The notes under the pieces are model-generated. The model did no database searches, had not been told where the DNA came from, and was given only the letters and a program-made list of their open reading frames with translations. From NCBI GenBank assembly GCA_002529645.1, contig NAEP01000041.1, forward strand, positions 8,610 through 72,609: a DNA stretch of 64,000 nt, in the 5' to 3' direction. This stretch comes from Candidatus Lumbricidiphila eiseniae. GTDB lineage: Bacteria > Actinomycetota > Actinomycetes > Actinomycetales > Microbacteriaceae. The stretch's first letter is position 1; each line of letters starts with the position of its first letter. A program made the position numbers and the translations under genes. Below are positions 12,109 through 58,071 of the stretch, piece by piece.

Positions 12109-12234
12109 TCCCGAGATAATGCCCTATTTGACAGATCAGTGTCGAAGGTTATCCACAGGCAGGCTCCGACCGCGCCAACAGTTGAACGCTCGACCCGTAC
12201 GGCTGTTTTGCGGCCGGATAGGGGCAGGGGGCAG

Positions 12235-12326
12235 GGCTGTCCCCCTCGTCCCGTGGCTCGATCCTGATGTGCGGCAGAAGTAGAACGCGCAATGGGGTTG
12301 TCCCCCTCGTCCCGCGGATCGATCCG
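12235..12326. repeat. 31-bp direct repeat pair, 61-bp period (locus A)
   Basis: GG(C/T)TGTCCCCCTCGTCCCG(T/C)GG(C/A)TCGATCC occurs at 12235-12265 and 12296-12326. Copy 2 contains the perfect 20-bp palindrome CCCGCGGATCGATCCGCGGG (12311-12330). Confidence 0.8.
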
Positions 12327-14086: not shown

Positions 14087-15226
14087 ATGAGCCTCTACTC
14101 TGAGGGTGCTGATGTTGCCCCGCCACTGCGGGTGAACCGTCCCCGTTATCGAACCGGAACCGAGCGTGCCGCGTCGATCGCCACCCTTGTTGCAACCCTC
14201 ATTGGGATGGTTCTGCTCGTGCTTCCCGCACCGTATGTTCTGGAGTCACCGGGGCCGGTCTACAACACACTCGGTACTGCTGCGGACGAATCGGGCAAAC
14301 AGGTGCCGCTCATGTCCATCACCGGAACAACGGTCTACCCCACGACCGGTTCCCTCAACCTGCTCACGGTCAGCCTCAGTGGCACTCCAGACCGTCCGCC
14401 AAGCTGGTGGAACGTGATTGGCGCGTGGATCGATCCCACCCAAACCGTCCGGCCGATGGATCTCTTTTTTCCGCCCGGCGTCAGTCAAAAACAGGTCGAG
14501 GAACAGTCCCAGACCGACATGGTCGATTCGCAGCAGGATGCCATTGCCGCGGCCCTTGTTTCTCTCGGGTACTCGATTCCGCTCGATGTCATCGTTGCGG
14601 GGGTGAGTACCGGTTCCCCGGCGGATGGCATCTTGCAACCGGGAGACATCATCGTCTCGGTGAATGGTGCGGTGATGACAGGCACCGAGGAGGTCCGCAC
14701 CGCGGTGCGGACAAACGGGACATCCACCGCTGCCACTGTTGTGCTCATGCGCGGCGGGCAGAACACGACAGTGCAGGTCACACCCCGGAGCATCCAGGGG
14801 TCACCGGCGCTCGGGATTGCGGTCGGCACCGCCGTGCGTAAAGGAAGTACGTTCCCGGTTGATGTCAAACTTCAGCTTGACAATGTTGGTGGTCCCAGTG
14901 CCGGCATGATGTTTGCGCTCGGGATCATTGACAGGCTCACTCCTACCCCGCTGACCGGTGGTCAGTCCGTCGCGGGAACCGGCACAATCGATGCATCCGG
15001 GTATGTCGGACCGATTGGTGGTATCTCTCAGAAGATGTGGGCGGCTCAGCGGGCGGGTACAAAGTGGTTTCTTGCGCCACGGTCCGACTGTCCCGAGGTG
15101 GTCGGCAGGGTTCCACCGGGCTTGCGTGTCTTTGCCGTGGCGACTCTCGCCCAGGCTCGCGCGGTTGTCGAAGACATAGCGGATGGCACGGCCTCCGACT
15201 CGCTCCCTATCTGTCCTGCGCGCTGA
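14087..15226 (+). CDS. PDZ domain-containing Lon-like (S16) membrane protease
   Basis: ORF 13841..15226, with the start moved to ATG 14087 (GAAGAAAGGA upstream). It has an N-terminal TM helix, a PDZ-like segment (GILQPGDIIVSVNG) and a Lon proteolytic-domain motif VGGPSAGMMFALGIID...GTGTIDASGYVGPIGGISQKMWAA. Confidence 0.75.
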   Translation: MSLYSEGADVAPPLRVNRPRYRTGTERAASIATLVATLIGMVLLVLPAPYVLESPGPVYNTLGTAADESGKQVPLMSITGTTVYPTTGSLNLLTVSLSGTPDRPPSWWNVIGAWIDPTQTVRPMDLFFPPGVSQKQVEEQSQTDMVDSQQDAIAAALVSLGYSIPLDVIVAGVSTGSPADGILQPGDIIVSVNGAVMTGTEEVRTAVRTNGTSTAATVVLMRGGQNTTVQVTPRSIQGSPALGIAVGTAVRKGSTFPVDVKLQLDNVGGPSAGMMFALGIIDRLTPTPLTGGQSVAGTGTIDASGYVGPIGGISQKMWAAQRAGTKWFLAPRSDCPEVVGRVPPGLRVFAVATLAQARAVVEDIADGTASDSLPICPAR

Positions 15227-15297
15227 TTGCAGCCCTTGCGAGTTGATGAGGATGAGCGTGTCCTTGAGCACCTGTCCTGCGCGCTGATTGCAGCCCT
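15211..15297. repeat. exact 26-bp direct repeat pair, 61-bp period (locus B)
   Basis: CTGTCCTGCGCGCTGATTGCAGCCCT occurs at 15211-15236 and 15272-15297. Copy 1 contains the last codons and the TGA stop of the PDZ protease gene. Confidence 0.9.
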
Positions 15298-18399: not shown

Positions 18400-18420
18400 T
18401 CGGCGGTCGTGAGCAGGTGC

Positions 18421-18572
18421 TACGGCTCCTGCGGTTGCGGGTACCGGAGTGTGTGTGGTTCTGCACCCCGCCAATCCGCCGTACATGGCTCCCGCGGTGC
18501 GGGTACCGGTGTCGGCGGTGTAGGTGCACGGAATGGCCCCGTACACGGCTCCCGCGGTTGCGGGTACCGGAG
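18421..18572. repeat. CRISPR-like mini-array: three degenerate about 29-nt direct repeats separated by 32- and 31-nt unique spacers (locus C)
   Basis: Repeats at about 18421-18449, 18482-18510 and 18542-18570. Consensus is TACAYGGCTCCCGCGGTTGCGGGTACCGG with an internal hairpin CCCGC-GGTT-GCGGG. Each of the first two copies carries a 1-nt deletion. There are no cas genes in the window. Confidence 0.35.
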
Positions 18573-24555: not shown

Positions 24556-25454
24556 GCTGTGCCTCCGGTATTGGCTTGTTCCTCGTTGATCGCGTTCAGG
24601 CCCTGCCAGATTGAGTTCCCTCCGTCAATGGGGAGCTCGACACCGGTAATGCTCCGACTTTTGTGTGACATCAAGAAGGCAACGGCTGCACCGATCTCCT
24701 CGGGGGTAATGGTCGAGGGTAGCATTTGTCGCGATTCAGCGAAGTTTCGAATCCAGGCTTCCGGATCGCCCCACTGCGCAATCAGTTGCCGGTTTAGTGG
24801 GCTGTCAACCAAGCCCGGGTGAATAATGTTGCAGCGAATATTTTCGCGCCCATGGTCTGCAGCAATGCCTCGTGTGAGGCCAATCATCCCCGTCTTTGCA
24901 GCAGAATAGGTCGAGTATCCGACTTCGGGGGCGATGGCTTGCACCGATCCGATGTTCACAATGGAACCGCCCCCGTGCGTTCGGAAGTGTGCGATAGCTT
25001 CGCGCGCGCACAGGAACGCACCCCGGAGATTCACGGTGTGAATTCGGTCCCACTCTGCCGTCGAGACATCCCCGAGAGTCTTGACCAACCCGACTCCTGC
25101 GCTGTTGACGAGCCCACAAAGTTTCCCGTTCTTCGGTACAAATTCGCGGAATAGGGTGTTGACGGTCGATTCATCTACAACATCAAGGTATGTTCCGAGG
25201 GCGGACAACCCTTCTGCGACAAGTTGGTCTGCGAGTGCGATGGCTTCTTTTTCCTCGCGGTCAGCAATCACGACGCTCCAGCCCTCGACCGCGAGTGCAC
25301 GGGAAATGCCTTGACCGATTCCGCCCCCTGCCCCACCGGTGACCACGATAAGGCGCGCCGGGTCGTTTTGCGGTGTCTGCACCGCTTCGTCTTGTGGTGC
25401 TTGGCTCACCCTGTTTCGCGGTGCCCGCACCGCTTCGTCTTCTTGCTGGTCCAC
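24552..25454 (-). CDS. SDR family oxidoreductase
   Basis: VTGGAGGGIGQGISRAL and YSAAKTG motifs. The GTG start lies at 25454. The N-terminal about 30 aa contains a 16-aa (48-bp) duplication, AVRAPRN.../AVQTPQN... Confidence 0.8.
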   Translation of the reverse strand: MDQQEDEAVRAPRNRVSQAPQDEAVQTPQNDPARLIVVTGGAGGGIGQGISRALAVEGWSVVIADREEKEAIALADQLVAEGLSALGTYLDVVDESTVNTLFREFVPKNGKLCGLVNSAGVGLVKTLGDVSTAEWDRIHTVNLRGAFLCAREAIAHFRTHGGGSIVNIGSVQAIAPEVGYSTYSAAKTGMIGLTRGIAADHGRENIRCNIIHPGLVDSPLNRQLIAQWGDPEAWIRNFAESRQMLPSTITPEEIGAAVAFLMSHKSRSITGVELPIDGGNSIWQGLNAINEEQANTGGTA

Positions 25455-25541
25455 TCCAGCTCCTTGTGTCGAGGGAAGATGTCTTTATGCAAAGGTACTC
25501 TACATCTGAAAAATCCAGCTCCTTGTGTCGAGGAAGATGTC
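25455..25541. promoter_or_regulatory. 28/29-bp direct repeat pair in the divergent SDR-AraC promoter region (locus F), candidate AraC-type operator
   Basis: TCCAGCTCCTTGTGTCGAGG(G)AAGATGTC occurs at 25455-25483 and 25514-25541. The two copies differ by one 1-nt indel and are separated by an unrelated 30-bp spacer. Confidence 0.45.
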
Positions 25542-41810: not shown

Positions 41811-41902
41811 GGTGTGGGTCGCAGATCCCGCGCCGTGGGCCGCAGATCCCGCGCCGTGGGCCGCAGATCCCGCGCCGTGGGCCGCAGATCCCGCGCCGTG
41901 GG
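41811..41902. repeat. perfect 21-bp tandem repeat x4 (CGCAGATCCCGCGCCGTGGGC) plus a partial leading copy
   Basis: Exact copies at 41819-41839, 41840-41860, 41861-41881 and 41882-41902. The repeat lies in the gap between the prfB stop (41951) and the ftsE start (41740). Confidence 0.95.
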
Positions 41903-41950
41903 CTCCGGAACTGCGGTGTGTGGAAGGCGAGAGCATCAGGCCGCTGCTTG

Positions 41951-44311: not shown

Positions 44312-45208
44312 TTACTGAGCCTGCCGCTGGAAGCACTCCACGTTCACAGCTTCACCCGTGGCCGTAGACTGCGATACAACTTTGCCGTCAATCATAATTT
44401 TGCAGCTGACTTTATTCCCGCTAGCAGGGTCTTTGCTTGCATCGAGGAACACCTTGCTGAGGTCAGTACTACCGGGGACGACGACTCGTTGCATCCACGG
44501 AAGAGTTTGGCCGGTTGCACGCTTAAAGACTCGATTTCCATTGTCGAATTCGACAAAGTTAACGGCAGTGTTCCGAGAAACCCCGGTAACTTCGTAGAAG
44601 ACTATCTTCATCCCCCAACTGGTGGTAATGCCGACCAGTGCGATCAACGCGAGGGAAACCCCGATGGTGACCATGACCTTGCGTGTTCCACGAAGACACA
44701 GGACAACAACGCCGAGCACAAGAGCCATCGCTGCGACGATTGCCGCCCCGATGCTCAACAGTGGGCTATTTCCGAACTCGGCACCCGGTATCAGGGTGAG
44801 AGCGAGCGGAATTCCGCCAATCTGCCAGAGGCGTAGCCCGGCTGCGGCGAATGCGCTGATCGCGAGTATGAGGGCTACAACACCGAGCCCGTCGTGTCGT
44901 CGTGAGCCGGGTTGTGCGGCGGTGTGGCGGCCGTGAGTGGCGGTGTGGTGGCGGTCGTGAGCGGCGCCGTGGCGGCCGTGGGTAGCGGTGTGGCGGCCGT
45001 GAGCGGCGGTTGCAGGACCAGTGTGAGGGCTGGTTTCAGAGGGTGATGTGCTGGCCCCCGACAGGAGCGTCGGAGACGTGAGATGAGGGGTAGTTTCAGA
45101 GGATAATGTGTCGTCTCCACTGGCTGTTGTGGGCGGCCTGGATCGCCGCGGCCGGTCTGGATGCAGTTTTTTTCTCTTATCTACCGAATGTCTGCCCATG
45201 ATCTTCAA
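44312..45208 (-). CDS. membrane protein with a His-rich repetitive N-terminus and an MmpS-like C-terminal domain
   Basis: N-terminus carries AAHGRHTATHGRHGAAHDRHHTATHGRHTAA repeats, followed by 3-4 TM helices. The C-terminus IVFYEVTG...LPWMQRVVV...VSCKIMIDGKVV...VNVEC resembles MmpS-family domains. Confidence 0.55.
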   Translation of the reverse strand: MKIMGRHSVDKRKKLHPDRPRRSRPPTTASGDDTLSSETTPHLTSPTLLSGASTSPSETSPHTGPATAAHGRHTATHGRHGAAHDRHHTATHGRHTAAQPGSRRHDGLGVVALILAISAFAAAGLRLWQIGGIPLALTLIPGAEFGNSPLLSIGAAIVAAMALVLGVVVLCLRGTRKVMVTIGVSLALIALVGITTSWGMKIVFYEVTGVSRNTAVNFVEFDNGNRVFKRATGQTLPWMQRVVVPGSTDLSKVFLDASKDPASGNKVSCKIMIDGKVVSQSTATGEAVNVECFQRQAQ

Positions 45209-48484: not shown

Positions 48485-48628
48485 GTGTAGGGGGCAGGAT
48501 TCGGTGACCCGTCGGGCGGCCAGCCAAAACTATACAACCCCGAGTGCGGGGGGCGGGACAGAGCCACCGCACTCAACCTCGAACCACGTTTGTACAACCC
48601 CGAGTGCAGGGAGCGGGATAAACTCACC
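48482..48628. repeat. about 60-bp-period repeat in the murI-pncB divergent region (locus D): two 38-bp copies plus a degenerate third
   Basis: TATACAACCCCGAGTGCGGGGGGCGGGACAGAGCCACC (48531-48568) and TGTACAACCCCGAGTGCAGGGAGCGGGATAAACTCACC (48591-48628) match at 31/38 positions. CAAGTGTAGGGGGCAGGATTCGGTGACC at 48482-48509 is a weaker third copy. Confidence 0.7.
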
Positions 48629-53248: not shown

Positions 53249-54046
53249 ATGCCTCGGCACACCGGTACGATAAGGGGTGTGACAACCCTCGCCAGATACC
53301 GACATTCGCTCTGGCTGCTCACCCTCCGTGATCTGAAGGTACGGTACTCCACCTCAGCGCTCGGCTACCTCTGGTCAGTGTTGGACCCGCTCGTGATGGC
53401 CGGTATCTACTGGTTCGTATTCACCCAGGTTTTCAATCGCCCGGTCGGCACGCAACCGTACATCGTCTTCCTGCTGTCTGCGCTGCTGCCGTGGATGTGG
53501 TTCAACGGTGCCATCTCGGATTCCACCCGCGCATTCCTGAAAGATGCGAAGCTGGTGCGGTCAATCGAAATCCCGCGCACGATTTGGGTGACCCGGATCG
53601 TGCTGTCAAAGGGGATCGAGTTTCTGTTAGCGCTCCCGGTCCTCGCGTTCTTCGCGCTCGTGTCCGGTGCGCAACCGGGATGGCACCTGCTTCTATTTCC
53701 GTTCGCGGTGGTGTTGCAGGCGGTGTTCACGACCGGGCTTGCTCTCGTCGTTGCACCGCTCGTTGTGTTCTTCCGAGACCTGGAGCGGGCGGTGAAACTT
53801 ACTCTTCGGTTCATGTTCTACGCGACGCCCATCATCTACGGAGTGTCAAACCTGCCGAGTCCGTACAATTTCTGGGCTGCATTCAATCCGCTCTCCGGTA
53901 TCTTTTGTATATATCGATCGGCATTCTTCCCCTCTGAGCTAGTCTGGCGTGACATCGCAGTCTCGATCGTGATGTCTACTATGGTTCTCATAGCGGGATT
54001 GTGGGTTTTCCGCTTCAGCGAGCGGCAGGTACTGAAGGAGATCTGA
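53249..54046 (+). CDS. ABC-2 type polysaccharide/teichoic-acid export permease (Wzm/TagG-like)
   Basis: LRDLKVRYSTSALGYLWSVLDPL signature and 6 TM helices. Confidence 0.8.
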   Translation: MPRHTGTIRGVTTLARYRHSLWLLTLRDLKVRYSTSALGYLWSVLDPLVMAGIYWFVFTQVFNRPVGTQPYIVFLLSALLPWMWFNGAISDSTRAFLKDAKLVRSIEIPRTIWVTRIVLSKGIEFLLALPVLAFFALVSGAQPGWHLLLFPFAVVLQAVFTTGLALVVAPLVVFFRDLERAVKLTLRFMFYATPIIYGVSNLPSPYNFWAAFNPLSGIFCIYRSAFFPSELVWRDIAVSIVMSTMVLIAGLWVFRFSERQVLKEI

Positions 54047-54813
54047 TGCTCACAGAAACGTTGAACCTCACCGTGACGGCTTCCCCCGCCATTCACACGG
54101 AGGGGCTTGGCATCCGCTTTCGTCGCAACCGGCTTGGCCGCCGGAACTTCAAAGACCTCTTCGGTGGTCGCAACCGTCGGACTCGCCCCGAAGAATTCTG
54201 GGCGATTCGGGATGTCTCCCTCACGGTTCATCCCGGCGAAGCAATCGGGGTTGTGGGTCGTAACGGGCAGGGAAAATCCACGCTGCTGAAGCTCGTTGCG
54301 GGTGTTCTGCTTGCGGATGCAGGACGGGTGCAGGTGACCGGGGGTGTCGCCCCGATTATTGAGATCACGGGTGGGTTCGTTGATGAGCTGAGCGTGCGTG
54401 ACAACGTATATCTCACGGCCGGTTTGCACGGGATGTCTCGAGCAAATATTGACTCGAAATTCAACGAGATCATTGCCTTCGCTGACATCGGCCGTTTCCT
54501 CGATACTCCGTACAAACACCTGTCCAGCGGTATGAAAGTGAGGATCGCGTTCGCGGTGATCTCACAGCTTGAGGAGCCTATTCTGCTCGTCGATGAGGTT
54601 CTTGCCGTCGGTGACGCCCAGTATCGCGAGAAGTGCTATAACCGGATCGAGGAACTCCTCGCCGGTGGCCGCACCCTGTTCTTTGTCTCACACAACGAGC
54701 ACGACCTACAGCGATTTTGCACCCGGGGCCTGTACCTCGACGAGGGGCGTCTCGTGCTTGACGGTCCCATTGCCGCCGTTCTTGAGCGTTACCGGGCAGA
54801 CCACGGTTTCTAG
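54046..54813 (+). CDS. polysaccharide export ABC ATP-binding protein (Wzt/TagH-like, no C-terminal binding domain)
   Basis: GRNGQGKST, LSSGMKVRIAFA and LLVDEVLAVGD motifs. ATG 54046 overlaps the permease TGA. Confidence 0.8.
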   Translation: MLTETLNLTVTASPAIHTEGLGIRFRRNRLGRRNFKDLFGGRNRRTRPEEFWAIRDVSLTVHPGEAIGVVGRNGQGKSTLLKLVAGVLLADAGRVQVTGGVAPIIEITGGFVDELSVRDNVYLTAGLHGMSRANIDSKFNEIIAFADIGRFLDTPYKHLSSGMKVRIAFAVISQLEEPILLVDEVLAVGDAQYREKCYNRIEELLAGGRTLFFVSHNEHDLQRFCTRGLYLDEGRLVLDGPIAAVLERYRADHGF

Positions 54814-54902
54814 TCTGACGGGTGGCTCTGCTCACACGCTAATCTCGACGAGGGATTCGGGAGAGGGCAAGGACTGACCGAGGGGTGCTCGGAACTTTCA
54901 GC

Positions 54903-55453
54903 TCAATCACCGGAGCTAACCGGTAGCACGTCACGGTTCGGTATTGCCTCAACCGTGTCGAGGCGCGGGTCGTGGGAGAACTGGCGATACAGCCTTTGTT
55001 CGGCTGCGACGATGAACGAGTCGGGGCAGAGACCTCCGCCCCACTCGAATGTTCCGGCGTCATCCCAGCAGAACTCTGGTAGTTGCATACCCTCACGCAA
55101 CTTCGTGGGATCGAACGTTCTGAGTGTGTAGTCTGAGTCCTCACCCCGTCGGCTTCCGTGGCGCATCGTGCCTGCGTAGCCGATCCACCAAGCGCCGGTG
55201 AGAGTGAGGCCGTCAAGGATGTCACGCAGGGCGTTGGCCGTGTTGGCATCGACCATGCCCCTGCACGGTTGCACGGTTGCACGGTTGCACGGTTGCACGG
55301 TTGCACGGTGAGGGGGAGCTTTCCGCCCCGATCAGTGAACCGATCGCTCACCTCACTCCAGCACACGGAGCCGGTTAGTTCTTCGCTGCAGGGCAGTGCC
55401 TCGCTGGGATTCACGCAGCGAGTGTGCATCCACCCCGCGCAAATCAACCCCAT
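54903..55453 (-). pseudogene. hypothetical gene split into two frames by an octanucleotide repeat (frameshifted or phase-variable)
   Basis: The N-terminal frame runs from ATG 55453 (MGLICAGWMHTRCVNPSEALPCSEELTGSVCWSEVSDRFTDRGGKLPL). The C-terminal frame runs from the repeat to the stop at 54903 (GMVDANTANALRDILDG...). The span is 551 nt. Removing one 8-bp unit restores a 180-codon ORF. Confidence 0.6.
55261..55308. repeat. octanucleotide tandem repeat (TTGCACGG)x6
   Basis: CTGCACGG followed by five exact TTGCACGG units, 48 bp with no interruption. Confidence 0.95.
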
Positions 55454-55522
55454 AGATCAGTCGTTTCTCCCGACCGCTGACGAGCTTGGCAGCGCCCGAC
55501 GGAGGCTCGAAGCGCTCGAAGC

Positions 55523-55672
55523 TGTAGAAACCTCGGGCGGGAGGAGCTATCGTTCCACAAAACACCTGGAGCCGGGCGAATGCGCAGAAGCCTCGGGCGT
55601 GGGAGCTATCAGCGTCTTCGTGCGCCGAGCGCATAACGACTATGCAGAAGCCTCGGGCGTGGGGAACTATCT
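55523..55672. repeat. three 27-30-bp direct repeats at exact 60-bp spacing (locus E)
   Basis: The core CCTCGGGCG occurs at 55531, 55591 and 55651. The copies read GTAGAAACCTCGGGCGGGAGGAGCTATC, GCAGAAGCCTCGGGCGTGGGAGCTATC and GCAGAAGCCTCGGGCGTGGGGAACTATC. The spacers are unrelated. Confidence 0.8.
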
Positions 55673-55777
55673 TGATAACGACGGCAGCATGGCCGATATT
55701 GCGCCCGTCCGGCGCGCACGGCGACTCCTCGACGGTTAGCGCGGAGCACCCGCGAGGACGCGGTTACAGTTCCCCGG

Positions 55778-56725
55778 TCACGCCACGAGTTTTTGAGTGA
55801 CCAGGTCGAGGAATCGGCCGAAGTCCAGCCCGGTGGTGATGGTGATAAGGGGAAGTTCGGTCCATCGGTGGTGGTGTCGCCGATCAACCACGGTCATCCC
55901 TCTGGTGAGCTGATCATTGATCGAAATATCGCAGTGGACCTGCGCGGTCTTCACGAGTGAAGCGTCCACTGCTGCGGCTACCGCCACGCTGTCAATCAGT
56001 GAGCAGTATGACTGATAGCCGCGCCTGTTGACGAAATCGACCACCCGCACCGCCAGTGCTGCTTCCGGTTTCTCCGAGGCGCGCAGAATCTGTAGGTGTT
56101 CGGGCTCGAAGTTAATGCCGGGATGGGTCGCGACATCGAGCCCAACCGCCAGGAGGTTAAATCCCGCGTGGAATATGGCGCGGGCCGACTCCGGGTCAAC
56201 AAAGATGTTCCACTCGCTGACCGGATTGTCACCGGTCGCCTGCGTCCAGGCATACGGGGTCTCTCCGAAGGACCCGCCGACGATGATGAGTTCGGTTATC
56301 TTCGTCGGGAGTTCTGGGTCAAGGCGGAGTGCTTCGGCAATATTGGTGAGCGGGCCCAAGGCGCACACGGTGATGTTGCCAGCGTGTTCTTTGACGGTGT
56401 CCACGATGAGCTGTGCTGCTGACCGGTTATCGAGGGGGCGGGTCGAGTCCGGAAGGTTCGACTCTGCGAGCCCGTCCGAGCCGTGTGAGAAGGGATCCGA
56501 CGGGTACGACCCTCCTGAGGGAACCAGCGGCCCCTGCGCGACGGGGATGTCTGGCGCATCGAGCATATCGAGGATCCGTAGTGCATTTGCTGCCGTGCGG
56601 TCAGCGGTGAGGTTCCCGGTCACAGCCGTGATAGCCCGCACGCTGATCTCCTCCGATTTGAGAGCCAGTGAGATCGCAAGTGCGTCATCCATGCCCGGGT
56701 CGGTGTCAATGAGGACGTTTTTCAT
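55778..56725 (-). CDS. nucleoside hydrolase (IUNH family)
   Basis: MKNVLIDTDPGMDDALAISLAL signature. ATG 56725 is preferred over the ORF start at 56800. Confidence 0.85.
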   Translation of the reverse strand: MKNVLIDTDPGMDDALAISLALKSEEISVRAITAVTGNLTADRTAANALRILDMLDAPDIPVAQGPLVPSGGSYPSDPFSHGSDGLAESNLPDSTRPLDNRSAAQLIVDTVKEHAGNITVCALGPLTNIAEALRLDPELPTKITELIIVGGSFGETPYAWTQATGDNPVSEWNIFVDPESARAIFHAGFNLLAVGLDVATHPGINFEPEHLQILRASEKPEAALAVRVVDFVNRRGYQSYCSLIDSVAVAAAVDASLVKTAQVHCDISINDQLTRGMTVVDRRHHHRWTELPLITITTGLDFGRFLDLVTQKLVA

Positions 56726-56807
56726 GCTTGCTCCTTCGTTCGCAGGGCAGTCGCAATTCTCGGGTGCCAATGACCAGGGGTATGGTAAGCATAACAACAA
56801 GAGGATT

Positions 56808-57734: not shown

Positions 57735-57775
57735 TGACGGGAGCGGGTGCTCTCGAGTCGATTCGCAGTGCACTG

Positions 57776-57875
57776 GGTATCACCATCACGCTGGGGTCAT
57801 GCGCATCGGTGATCTGGCGGTCGGTGCCCGAGGCGGGGCATCCCCATCACGTCGGGGTCATGCGTTCCAGTGATT
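57776..57875. repeat. 39-bp direct repeat pair, 61-bp period (locus G)
   Basis: GGTATCACCATCACGCTGGGGTCATGCGCATCGGTGATC (57776-57814) and GGCATCCCCATCACGTCGGGGTCATGCGTTCCAGTGATT (57837-57875) match at 30/39 positions. Confidence 0.7.
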
Positions 57876-58071
57876 CCGGCTTCCGTGGAATCGGGTGGGC
57901 GTCGGTTGGGGGATATGTCCGGCTCTGGCACACGGACATCCCGGATATGTGGGCTCGTGTCGGGCACTGAACGATGGCCGGGAGGTTCGTGCGGGCTGCG
58001 TGTGAGGGCTCGGTTGAGAAGGCCGTGGTGGTTGCTAGAGCCAGCAGGGGGCACAAGTCTGGGCTGCACCG

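Follow-up and report, generated by a model that had tools for sequence, protein, structure and literature searches.

Does a perfect octanucleotide tract that separates two reading frames of a small actinobacterial gene act as a switch, or does it mark a gene in decay? This question is raised by a locus of Candidatus Lumbricidiphila eiseniae located in a 64,000-nucleotide stretch of contig NAEP01000041.1, hereafter called the window. An initial annotation of this DNA had proposed that the tract splits one gene into two frames and that slipped-strand gain or loss of units would turn the gene ON or OFF, as in simple-sequence contingency loci.

The octanucleotide tract and the split reading frame

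In the window, TRF reports an array at 55262-55309 with a period of 8, 6.0 copies, and 100% matches, and no other perfect multi-copy array of a short unit. Read on the minus strand, the tract runs from 55308 to 55261 as (CCGTGCAA)x5 followed by CCGTGCAG, i.e., 48 nt and six units, which confirms the perfect six-unit tract of 8 bp initially annotated at 55261-55308. Since six tandem copies of one 8-mer have a chance expectation of roughly 64000 x 4^-40 in 64 kb, the tract is unexpected by chance. On the same strand, an ORF opening at ATG 55453 enters the tract, which occupies its codons 49-64, and runs on to 54839 (204 aa) as a sequence rich in S, T, R, and P. A second frame, offset by one nucleotide and reading GMVDANTANALRD..., emerges from the tract and is closed by a stop at 54903. 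Both frames and the decay of the upstream one past the tract had been correctly described, as had the GGGAGA located 12 nt 5' of ATG 55453 and the richness in G/C of third codon positions over the first 50 codons (GC3 = 0.76). In a scan for promoters and terminators, no promoter-like site was found on the minus strand 5' of this ATG, and no terminator-like site was found.

The repeat unit, with its 8 bp not divisible by three, is perfect and lies inside an ORF, which is the structure of a phase-variable locus. By frame arithmetic, a continuous ORF is obtained with 2, 5, 8, or 11 units. Removing one unit gives 543 nt and a single ORF of 180 aa, as initially calculated, whereas adding two, for which the same 543 nt had been announced, gives 567 nt and 188 aa. 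The tract codes for an identical cyclic octapeptide, TVQPCNRA, in all three frames. In a true contingency locus, the truncated protein would be functional, and gain or loss of 8-bp units would switch it ON (5, 8, or 11 units) or OFF as an adaptive bet-hedging strategy; the presence, within the 5'-most third of an ORF, of a perfect tract whose unit is not a triplet speaks for this reading.

The same-strand upstream neighbor encodes an inosine-uridine nucleoside hydrolase (55778..56800, minus strand; Pfam PF01156, E=5e-77). The convergent neighbor encodes the ATPase of an ABC-2-type transporter (54001..54813, plus strand; Pfam) and is preceded by an ABC-2 permease gene (53249-54046; Pfam). The location of the gene next to this transporter pair is retained in L001 and L017, two sequences from a lineage about 95% identical to the window. 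That an exporter of polysaccharide type adjoins the gene is a further point in favor of a contingency locus.

Both frames as parts of one protein family

Using the reconstructed protein as a query, full-length relatives are found, such as P0006 from Arthrobacter jiangjiafuii (206 aa). A profile search identifies 127 relatives of ~200 aa in Microbacterium, Arthrobacter, Leifsonia, and Salinibacterium, all annotated as "hypothetical", which mostly cover 93-98% of the 200-aa query and nearly all span both halves. The family is small, as an exhaustive HMMER search yields just 66 cluster representatives, and a scan of genome contigs finds relatives at 37-45% identity only, with no close species.

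An HMM of 66 homologues matches the window through positions 42-83 in the frame of ATG 55453 and through positions 74-202 in the post-tract frame. The first match corresponds to codons 17-48 (55309-55405, minus strand) of a pre-tract ORF segment that covers 55309..55453 on the minus strand, as delimited by a three-frame hmmsearch and by alignment with L017, and the second one to 117 codons and a stop (54903..55256, minus strand). No match to positions 1-41 is found in any of the three window frames. Judging from these profile matches, both halves belong to one conserved hypothetical family of ~200 aa in Microbacteriaceae and Arthrobacter, and the initial view that the two frames are one gene is borne out. 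The match to this KKR91_07860-like family is restricted to positions 42-202, in two frames, and leaves out the conserved N-terminal block ARDFIPxSHRxLPMLRxYLPF...VRW, nearly invariant over ARDFIPxSHRxLPMLRxYLPF. The window gene is thus a family member by descent, as a truncated and frameshifted copy. Repeats located upstream of ATG 55453, one frame of which reads ARGF, were considered as a source of the ARDF motif of this block and rejected, as the HMM finds no N-terminal match in any frame.

The tract stands at the position of a variable linker (consensus DLVSCMG; TLQPCGG in the closest intact relative), where no other member of the family alignment carries an insertion. An AlphaFold2 model of the intact homologue P0002 (pLDDT 88.9, with residues 11-50 at 86-96) predicts three strands within the segment that the window gene has lost. 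The search by HMM or structure that had been suggested at the outset thus reveals a family, and no domain, defense-system, or fold to go with it: Foldseek with the model of the intact homologue gives no match in PDB or BFVD (all E-values >=0.4), and neither the two halves, nor the reconstruction, nor the intact homologues scanned are matched in Pfam, NCBIfam, or PADLOC. No Pfam domain is present in the 127 relatives or in fused or longer members of the family (270-463 aa). No signal peptide and no surface, restriction-modification, or defense signature was found for the gene product, and the gene neighborhoods of homologues in Microbacterium and Arthrobacter are not conserved; both observations count against a contingency locus. 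A Microbacterium lushaniae strain carries a family gene with an in-frame internal deletion, and the family is therefore decaying outside the window lineage too.

The 117-aa C-terminal ORF starting at ATG 55256 could also be considered as a gene in its own right, with the tract located in a 5' leader where its length would tune expression. Both NCBI and JGI annotate it as such (P0003, 117 aa), gene calls give several homologues a length of 117-134 aa, and an AGGGG is found just 5' of the ATG. However, this AGGGG ends 1 nt before the ATG, which is too close, and among the short homologues checked, P0201 owes its length to a miscalled start codon in an intact 200-aa ORF, whereas P0223 results from an in-frame internal deletion. 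In addition, the 117-aa piece would lack about 40% of what is predicted to be a single compact fold. A stand-alone gene at ATG 55256, which the initial annotation had set against its own reading, was not found, the sequence upstream of the tract being conserved as protein, and this possibility is considered very unlikely.

Origin of the truncated gene by deletion

At the gene, homology between the window and L017 begins only at window position ~55405. In L017, the nucleoside hydrolase gene is followed by a convergent citE-like HpcH/HpaI aldolase gene encoding 285 aa (Pfam on L017:2713-3570), by genes for an MBL-fold protein, a CoA transferase, a GntR regulator, an NMT1-type ABC transporter, and a peptidase S15, by an IS fragment, and by the intact 200-aa gene. 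Eight further genes and the IS fragment stand between the citE-like gene and the intact gene. Identity of the window with L017 is lost after "...GTGAATCCCAGCG" (~2933) and regained at "AGCGAGGCACTGCCC" (~12387). About 9.45 kb of L017 are missing from the window, with an AGCG microhomology at the junction (55402..55405), as established from the alignments, a BLAST comparison of L020 (another tract-bearing sequence) with L017, and the gene content of the deleted stretch.

On the plus strand, the window retains a 3' remnant of the citE-like gene (55406..55739) recognized by comparing the translation of the L017 gene with that of the window ORF 55158-55739; it consists of ~70 original codons and 40 inserted ones. 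From the position of the junction, ATG 55453, GGGAGA, and the first 16 codons of the ORF (55406-55453, minus strand; new sequence MGLICAGWMHTRCVNP in the L017 alignment) lie antisense to the 3'-terminal ~70 codons of the citE-like gene. The ATG and its Shine-Dalgarno-like sequence are not an evolved start, since both are antisense of this remnant. The window gene has lost its promoter, ribosome-binding site, and start codon together with ~45 conserved N-terminal residues, which argues against a contingency locus. Every tract-bearing allele (window, L011, L020/P0001, P0005, and P0009, all described below) displays the truncated N-terminus or the same flank, so the repeat expanded within the deletion lineage.

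Unit number in related alleles

The window allele includes six units and is out of frame. The same count is found in L012 (ENA), which is 100% identical over 8.6 kb and probably derives from the same assembly, so that it is non-independent, and in L011 (JGI 3300002405), an independent sample with 1 mismatch in 1124 bp. L020 (JGI 3300006001) contains 11 units and is in frame, with a 196-aa ORF identical to the protein P0001. In the ~95% identical lineage (L001, L002, and L017), two imperfect units, CCCTGCAA CCGTGTGG, are in frame within an intact 200-aa gene. The comparison of tract length in related sequences, suggested at the outset, thus shows that the tract is not fixed at six, with 2 imperfect, 6, and 11 units observed. 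Among close relatives, the polymorphism is seen at the DNA level (six units in the window and L011, 11 in L020), and the flanks are 100% and 99.9% identical. Contig names place L001/L017 and L020 in a single JGI sample and L002 together with L012 in a single ENA sample.

A single run, SRR6218665, yields P0001 (11 units), P0005 (6 units), and P0007, which is of the intact-lineage type and itself disrupted. No DNA records were found for the SRC proteins P0001 and P0005. The coexistence of natural ON and OFF alleles, with both protein types in one run, is what a contingency locus would display. However, the length differences coincide with different haplotypes (14 SNPs), and the window haplotype keeps six units in a second, independent sample, both of which argue against it.

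A further catalogue protein, P0009 (180 aa), corresponds exactly to the predicted 5-unit product. The SRC catalogue proteins P0001, P0005, and P0009 are presumably Plass protein-level assemblies. As the octapeptide is identical in all three frames, reads can be chained across frames within the tract; for this reason, P0009 is not relied on here and may be an assembly artefact. The 180-aa protein announced for five units is thus matched exactly, by a protein-level assembly that is possibly artefactual. The same concern could be extended to all the length differences, which would then have been created by short-read or protein-level assembly through a tandem repeat. This would account for the 5-unit P0009 and would touch the other SRC proteins, but six units are found both in a k=141 contig, with a 48-nt tract shorter than k, and in a separate JGI contig, whereas the 11-unit length is seen in a nucleotide contig from JGI and, independently, in P0001, which shares its linked substitutions. 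Such an artefact is the most improbable of the explanations considered for the tract.

Substitutions and constraint after the tract

Branch counts were obtained for the 354-nt post-tract region, polarized with L017. The window-specific branch carries 5 nonsynonymous and 2 synonymous substitutions and the L020-specific branch 6 and 0, i.e., 11 and 2 for both tract-bearing branches (omega about 1.7), vs 9 and 8 for the L017 branch (omega about 0.35); at one additional site, no two of the three sequences agree. Neutral evolution could produce the 11:2 ratio (p=0.75), and the contrast between branches has the expected sign without being significant (Fisher p=0.12). In the window allele, Y is replaced by C in the nearly invariant LYPDS motif and A by E in AWGG, and the replacement of such residues is not in favor of a contingency locus. 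With positions 1-41 missing, an origin by deletion, and this 11N:2S pattern, the gene does not behave as one kept intact and under selection in its ON state. The loss of the native start and of conserved residues, the frameshift, and the neutral pattern of substitution are together those of a pseudogene.

The substitutions are unevenly distributed. Between the window and L020, no difference is observed in 2446 bp upstream of the tract, 16 are found in the 439 bp that run from the tract up to a 29-nt element located past the stop codon, and 3 in the 2901 bp beyond (Fisher p=7e-16 for the clustering). This element, a single hairpin (GAAAGTTCCGAGCACCCCTCGGTCAGTCC; 54871..54899, minus strand) placed directly after the stop codon, forms the 3' limit of the diverged segment. 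Transitions account for 13 of the 14 differences in coding sequence and mostly exchange one purine for the other on the sense strand. The diverged segment may have arisen by recombination over a stretch delimited by the two repeat features, by chimeric assembly of strains in the metagenome, or by hypermutation confined to the DNA that follows the tract.

A probable slippage-prone repeat in a gene remnant

From these data, the locus is probably a neutral, slippage-prone octanucleotide repeat carried by a pseudogene or gene remnant. The ancestral state was a stand-alone gene of ~200 aa, which L017 still has, with the two imperfect units CCCTGCAA CCGTGTGG. The loss of ~9.45 kb between AGCG microhomologies then removed the promoter, the ribosome-binding site, the start, and the first ~45 codons, fusing codon 46 onward to the antisense of the citE-like remnant, where an ATG opens the frame by chance. 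Point changes may have produced a near-identical pair of units (7/8 bases), from which slipped-strand mispairing would have led to the six units of the window, frameshifted, and to the 11 units of the sister haplotype, in frame. As each unit gained or lost would shift the frame by one position, the tract could toggle the frame.

Change of unit number by slipped strands, with its effect on the frame, is real at the mutational level. This switching would be mutational noise rather than regulated bet-hedging, because the protein is deprived of its structured N-terminal segment and substitutions accumulate as if unconstrained. To our knowledge, Actinobacteria are devoid of MutS/MutL, and their NucS pathway reportedly leaves indel loops unrepaired, so repeat tracts should drift freely in this phylum.

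Several features sit less easily with a pseudogene. The 11-unit allele keeps a clean ORF of 196 codons, the post-tract frame is free of stops in all alleles despite 14 substitutions, and two distinct lengths are in frame (11 units, and 5 if P0009 is real). The tract is located in a loop-like, alignment-variable linker where insertion might be tolerated. Finally, the contrast between branches is non-significant, and omega above 1 could reflect diversifying selection. The open post-tract frame and the omega value are also what a contingency locus could invoke. Nevertheless, no second such tract occurs in 64 kb, and a true contingency locus remains unlikely, although clearly less so than a stand-alone C-terminal gene or an assembly artefact. 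Of the initial proposal, the single gene in two frames and the variable unit number stand, whereas the gene is 5'-truncated, its start has not evolved as such, and its substitutions look neutral.

If the locus is a pseudogene with a slippery repeat, a textbook-looking contingency architecture can arise by neutral slippage in a dying gene, especially in a phylum lacking MutS/MutL, and gene intactness and constraint need checking in sequence-only "phasome" screens. The locus would also provide a clean natural series of octanucleotide slippage in Actinobacteria, from 2 imperfect to 6 and 11 units.

Repeats with a 60-bp spacing near the locus

The three repeats spaced by 60 bp initially noticed upstream of ATG 55453 are present at 55524-55551, 55584-55610, and 55644-55671 (spacing 60 and 60 bp). 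They constitute an R-S-R-S-R mini-array (55524..55671, minus strand) in which the repeat R measures 27-28 nt (GATAGCTCCCACGCCCGAGGCTTCTGC) and the inserts S1 and S2 measure 33 and 32 nt. At this site, R is single in L017 and present in three copies in the window and L020; the 120 bp that these two have in excess consist of two rounds of a 27-28-nt repeat and an unrelated insert of 32-33 nt. Two further R-S-R polymorphisms are found within 1 kb. Thus, L017 has R(29)+S(32)+R (L017 2618-2708) where the window has a single hairpin element (ACTGTAACCGCGTCCTCGCGGGTGCTCCG; 55742..55770, minus strand, between the stops of the hydrolase gene and the citE remnant), and the single element at 54871-54899 of the window corresponds to R(29)+S(32)+R in L020.

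An offset scan of the whole window for direct repeats outside tandem arrays (offsets 12-300 bp) detects them almost only at 59-61 bp, at seven sites starting at 12233, 15208, 18477, 25452, 48531, 55581, and 57783. Single cases occur at 48, 123, and 275 bp, the 123-bp case being the outer pair of a three-copy array at 18419-18571. Each R-S-R site has its own repeat sequence, and several repeats are hairpins at gene ends or in ribosome-binding regions. The duplicated target measures roughly 26-31 nt (27-29 in the three cleanest cases) and the insert roughly 29-35 nt (32-33 in the same cases); two sites display 36-39/22-24 nt for repeat and insert, one of them inside a ~240-bp insertion absent from L017. 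The pattern recurs at ten or more sites in the lineage, of which at least three differ between near-identical strains, and was not found in the loci compared from other genera. This amounts to about one site per 7 kb in density, for which we know of no precedent in off-target integration.

The inserts are not similar to the repeats. For eight of them, no match was found elsewhere in the window, in L017, in L020, or in any phage record, and three searched in IMG/VR had no exact match there. The insert at 18510-18538 matches Streptomyces argG over 26/28 nt, with the same peptide AIPCTYTAD and both mismatches synonymous, and looks like a captured chromosomal fragment.

Simple tandem duplication was rejected as the origin of the 60-bp repeats, as the inserts resemble neither repeats nor flanks and are lacking at empty sites. 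A degenerate genuine CRISPR array was also discarded, the repeat being different at each site and without Rfam CRISPR-DR match. No CRISPR-DR family reaches the gathering score in the whole window, nor E<=10 at three repeat sites, and no cas gene is found among eight large or repeat-flanking window ORFs tested; neither a known direct-repeat family nor nearby cas genes thus designate a CRISPR array. The three events instead combine a novel insert of ~32-33 nt, a target duplication of ~28-29 nt, and an empty site in a relative, as expected of integration scars.

In its geometry, the pattern corresponds to type I-E-like Cas1-Cas2 integration at non-CRISPR sites, called "neo-CRISPR" (Nivala, Shipman and Church 2018, as described in bioRxiv 10.1101/148544). 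As in that description, a target of ~28-29 nt is duplicated around a novel insert of ~32-33 nt with a period of 60-61, events stack into mini-arrays, each window site has its own repeat, and one insert seems to be a captured fragment of a chromosomal gene. Unlike in that description, the 64 kb show neither cas genes nor a canonical array, no protospacer is found, and some older window sites measure 36-39/22-24 nt. From this comparison, we tentatively suggest that the R-S-R sites may be scars of natural off-target CRISPR adaptation, with inserts often landing in hairpins, a possibility rated as less probable than the pseudogene reading of the tract and more probable than its contingency reading.

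Off-target spacer integration has so far been demonstrated mainly under overexpression in E. coli. If the suggestion is true, this soil member of the Microbacteriaceae would exemplify, in nature, a rampant ectopic integration of spacers that remodels intergenic regions and the ends of genes. If the sites are Cas1-Cas2-derived, off-target integration would contribute appreciably, in nature, to structural variation and to the emergence of CRISPR-like arrays. The R-S-R insertions, with their 61-bp period, could then matter more than the octanucleotide tract.

Comparison with known repeat-switching systems

The simple-sequence contingency loci of Neisseria, Haemophilus, and Campylobacter rely on intragenic non-triplet repeats that turn genes ON or OFF by slipped-strand mispairing (PMC11868660). 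Octanucleotide tracts of at least three units qualify under criteria for phase-variable repeats (PMC7383803). The window tract resembles these loci in being perfect, non-triplet, and located in a 5' third, with each unit step shifting the frame, and in having natural alleles that differ in unit number, both in frame and out of frame. It differs from them in that the carrier gene is a 5'-truncated remnant without visible constraint, the product is apparently cytoplasmic, the length differences track haplotypes, and the host belongs to soil Microbacteriaceae with a single such tract in 64 kb.

Among Actinobacteria, repeat-based switching by frameshift has already been described, namely at homopolymers of M. 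tuberculosis (PMC11868660). These share with the window the phylum, frameshifting indels in an intragenic repeat, and a host without MutS/MutL. Nevertheless, the homopolymers reside in functional genes with a measured phenotype and demonstrated reversibility, whereas the window displays an 8-bp unit in a relic gene known from sequence. As frameshifting at actinobacterial repeats is known and octanucleotides fall within the criteria, even a working switch would be a further case of a known phenomenon. Compared to VNTRs located in pseudogenes or non-coding DNA, the window unit is distinctive in being short (8 bp), perfect, and derived from a two-unit proto-repeat in once-coding sequence; as for those VNTRs, its copy-number polymorphism by slippage needs no adaptive role.

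Divergence at the octanucleotide tract and disrupted family members

Between the window and L020, a contig of a near-identical haplotype, divergence is concentrated in window 54871-55309, where 16 differences are found in 439 bp, as against none in 2446 bp of the upstream flank and 3 in 2901 bp of the downstream flank. With few exceptions, these differences are transitions. The diverged segment is bordered at one end by the 8-bp tract interrupting the gene of the ~200-aa family and at the other by a 29-nt hairpin element.

In Microbacterium lushaniae (GCA_008725635; L022 1501-1860), the homologue of the ~200-aa family has lost about 48 internal codons, in frame, between two RDL codon triplets, and the gene is intact (201 aa) in a second assembly of this species; the family thus appears to be dispensable and decay-prone. 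Two further disrupted variants from run SRR6218665 were read from their protein sequence alone: P0007 belongs to the lineage whose N-terminus is intact and shows an insertion or duplication directly after GGMVDANT, and P0004 corresponds to an 11-unit-type allele with a deletion restoring the frame. As both changes lie near the 8-bp tract, they may mark a structural hotspot, or they may be artefacts of assembly.

Insertion, deletion and tandem arrays

Compared with L017, a contig of a lineage about 95% identical, the window displays a 9.45-kb deletion (L017 2933-12387) whose junction, at window 55402-55405, carries an AGCG microhomology. The lost segment includes a citE-like gene body, an MBL-fold gene, a CoA transferase, a GntR regulator, an NMT1-type ABC transporter, a peptidase S15 and an IS5-like fragment. 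An intergenic insertion of about 240 bp (window 57737-57977), which the ENA record annotates as a 78-aa ORF, is missing in L017 and contains a 39-nt repeat pair spaced by 61 bp. Two tandem arrays, each of about 4.3 copies of a 21-bp period, are located at window 41814-41903 (98% matches) and 44916-45010 (74% matches), and are probably repeats within coding sequence because this period is in frame.

Repeat-insert-repeat sites

A repeat-insert-repeat (R-S-R) pattern with a 59-61-bp period recurs in the window at 12233-12325, 15208-15297, 18419-18571 (a three-copy mini-array), 25452-25541, 45024-45110, 48531-48628, 55524-55671 and 57775-57874, in L017 at 2618-2708 and 12158-12250, and in L020 at 2871-2960. 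Direct duplications of about 26-31 nt (36-39 nt at two older sites) enclose inserts of about 29-35 nt (22-24 nt at the same two sites) that are unrelated to the repeats, and each site has its own, different repeat sequence. Presence or absence of the pattern differs at three sites between near-identical strains, and it was not found in the loci from other genera.

The mini-array is located between the UPF0182 gene and a gene for a transporter. Its second insert (18510-18538) matches Streptomyces argG at 26/28 nt; the peptide AIPCTYTAD is common to both, the two mismatches being synonymous. This insert looks like a captured chromosomal gene fragment. In their geometry, the R-S-R sites of this lineage resemble off-target spacer integration by type I-E Cas1-Cas2.
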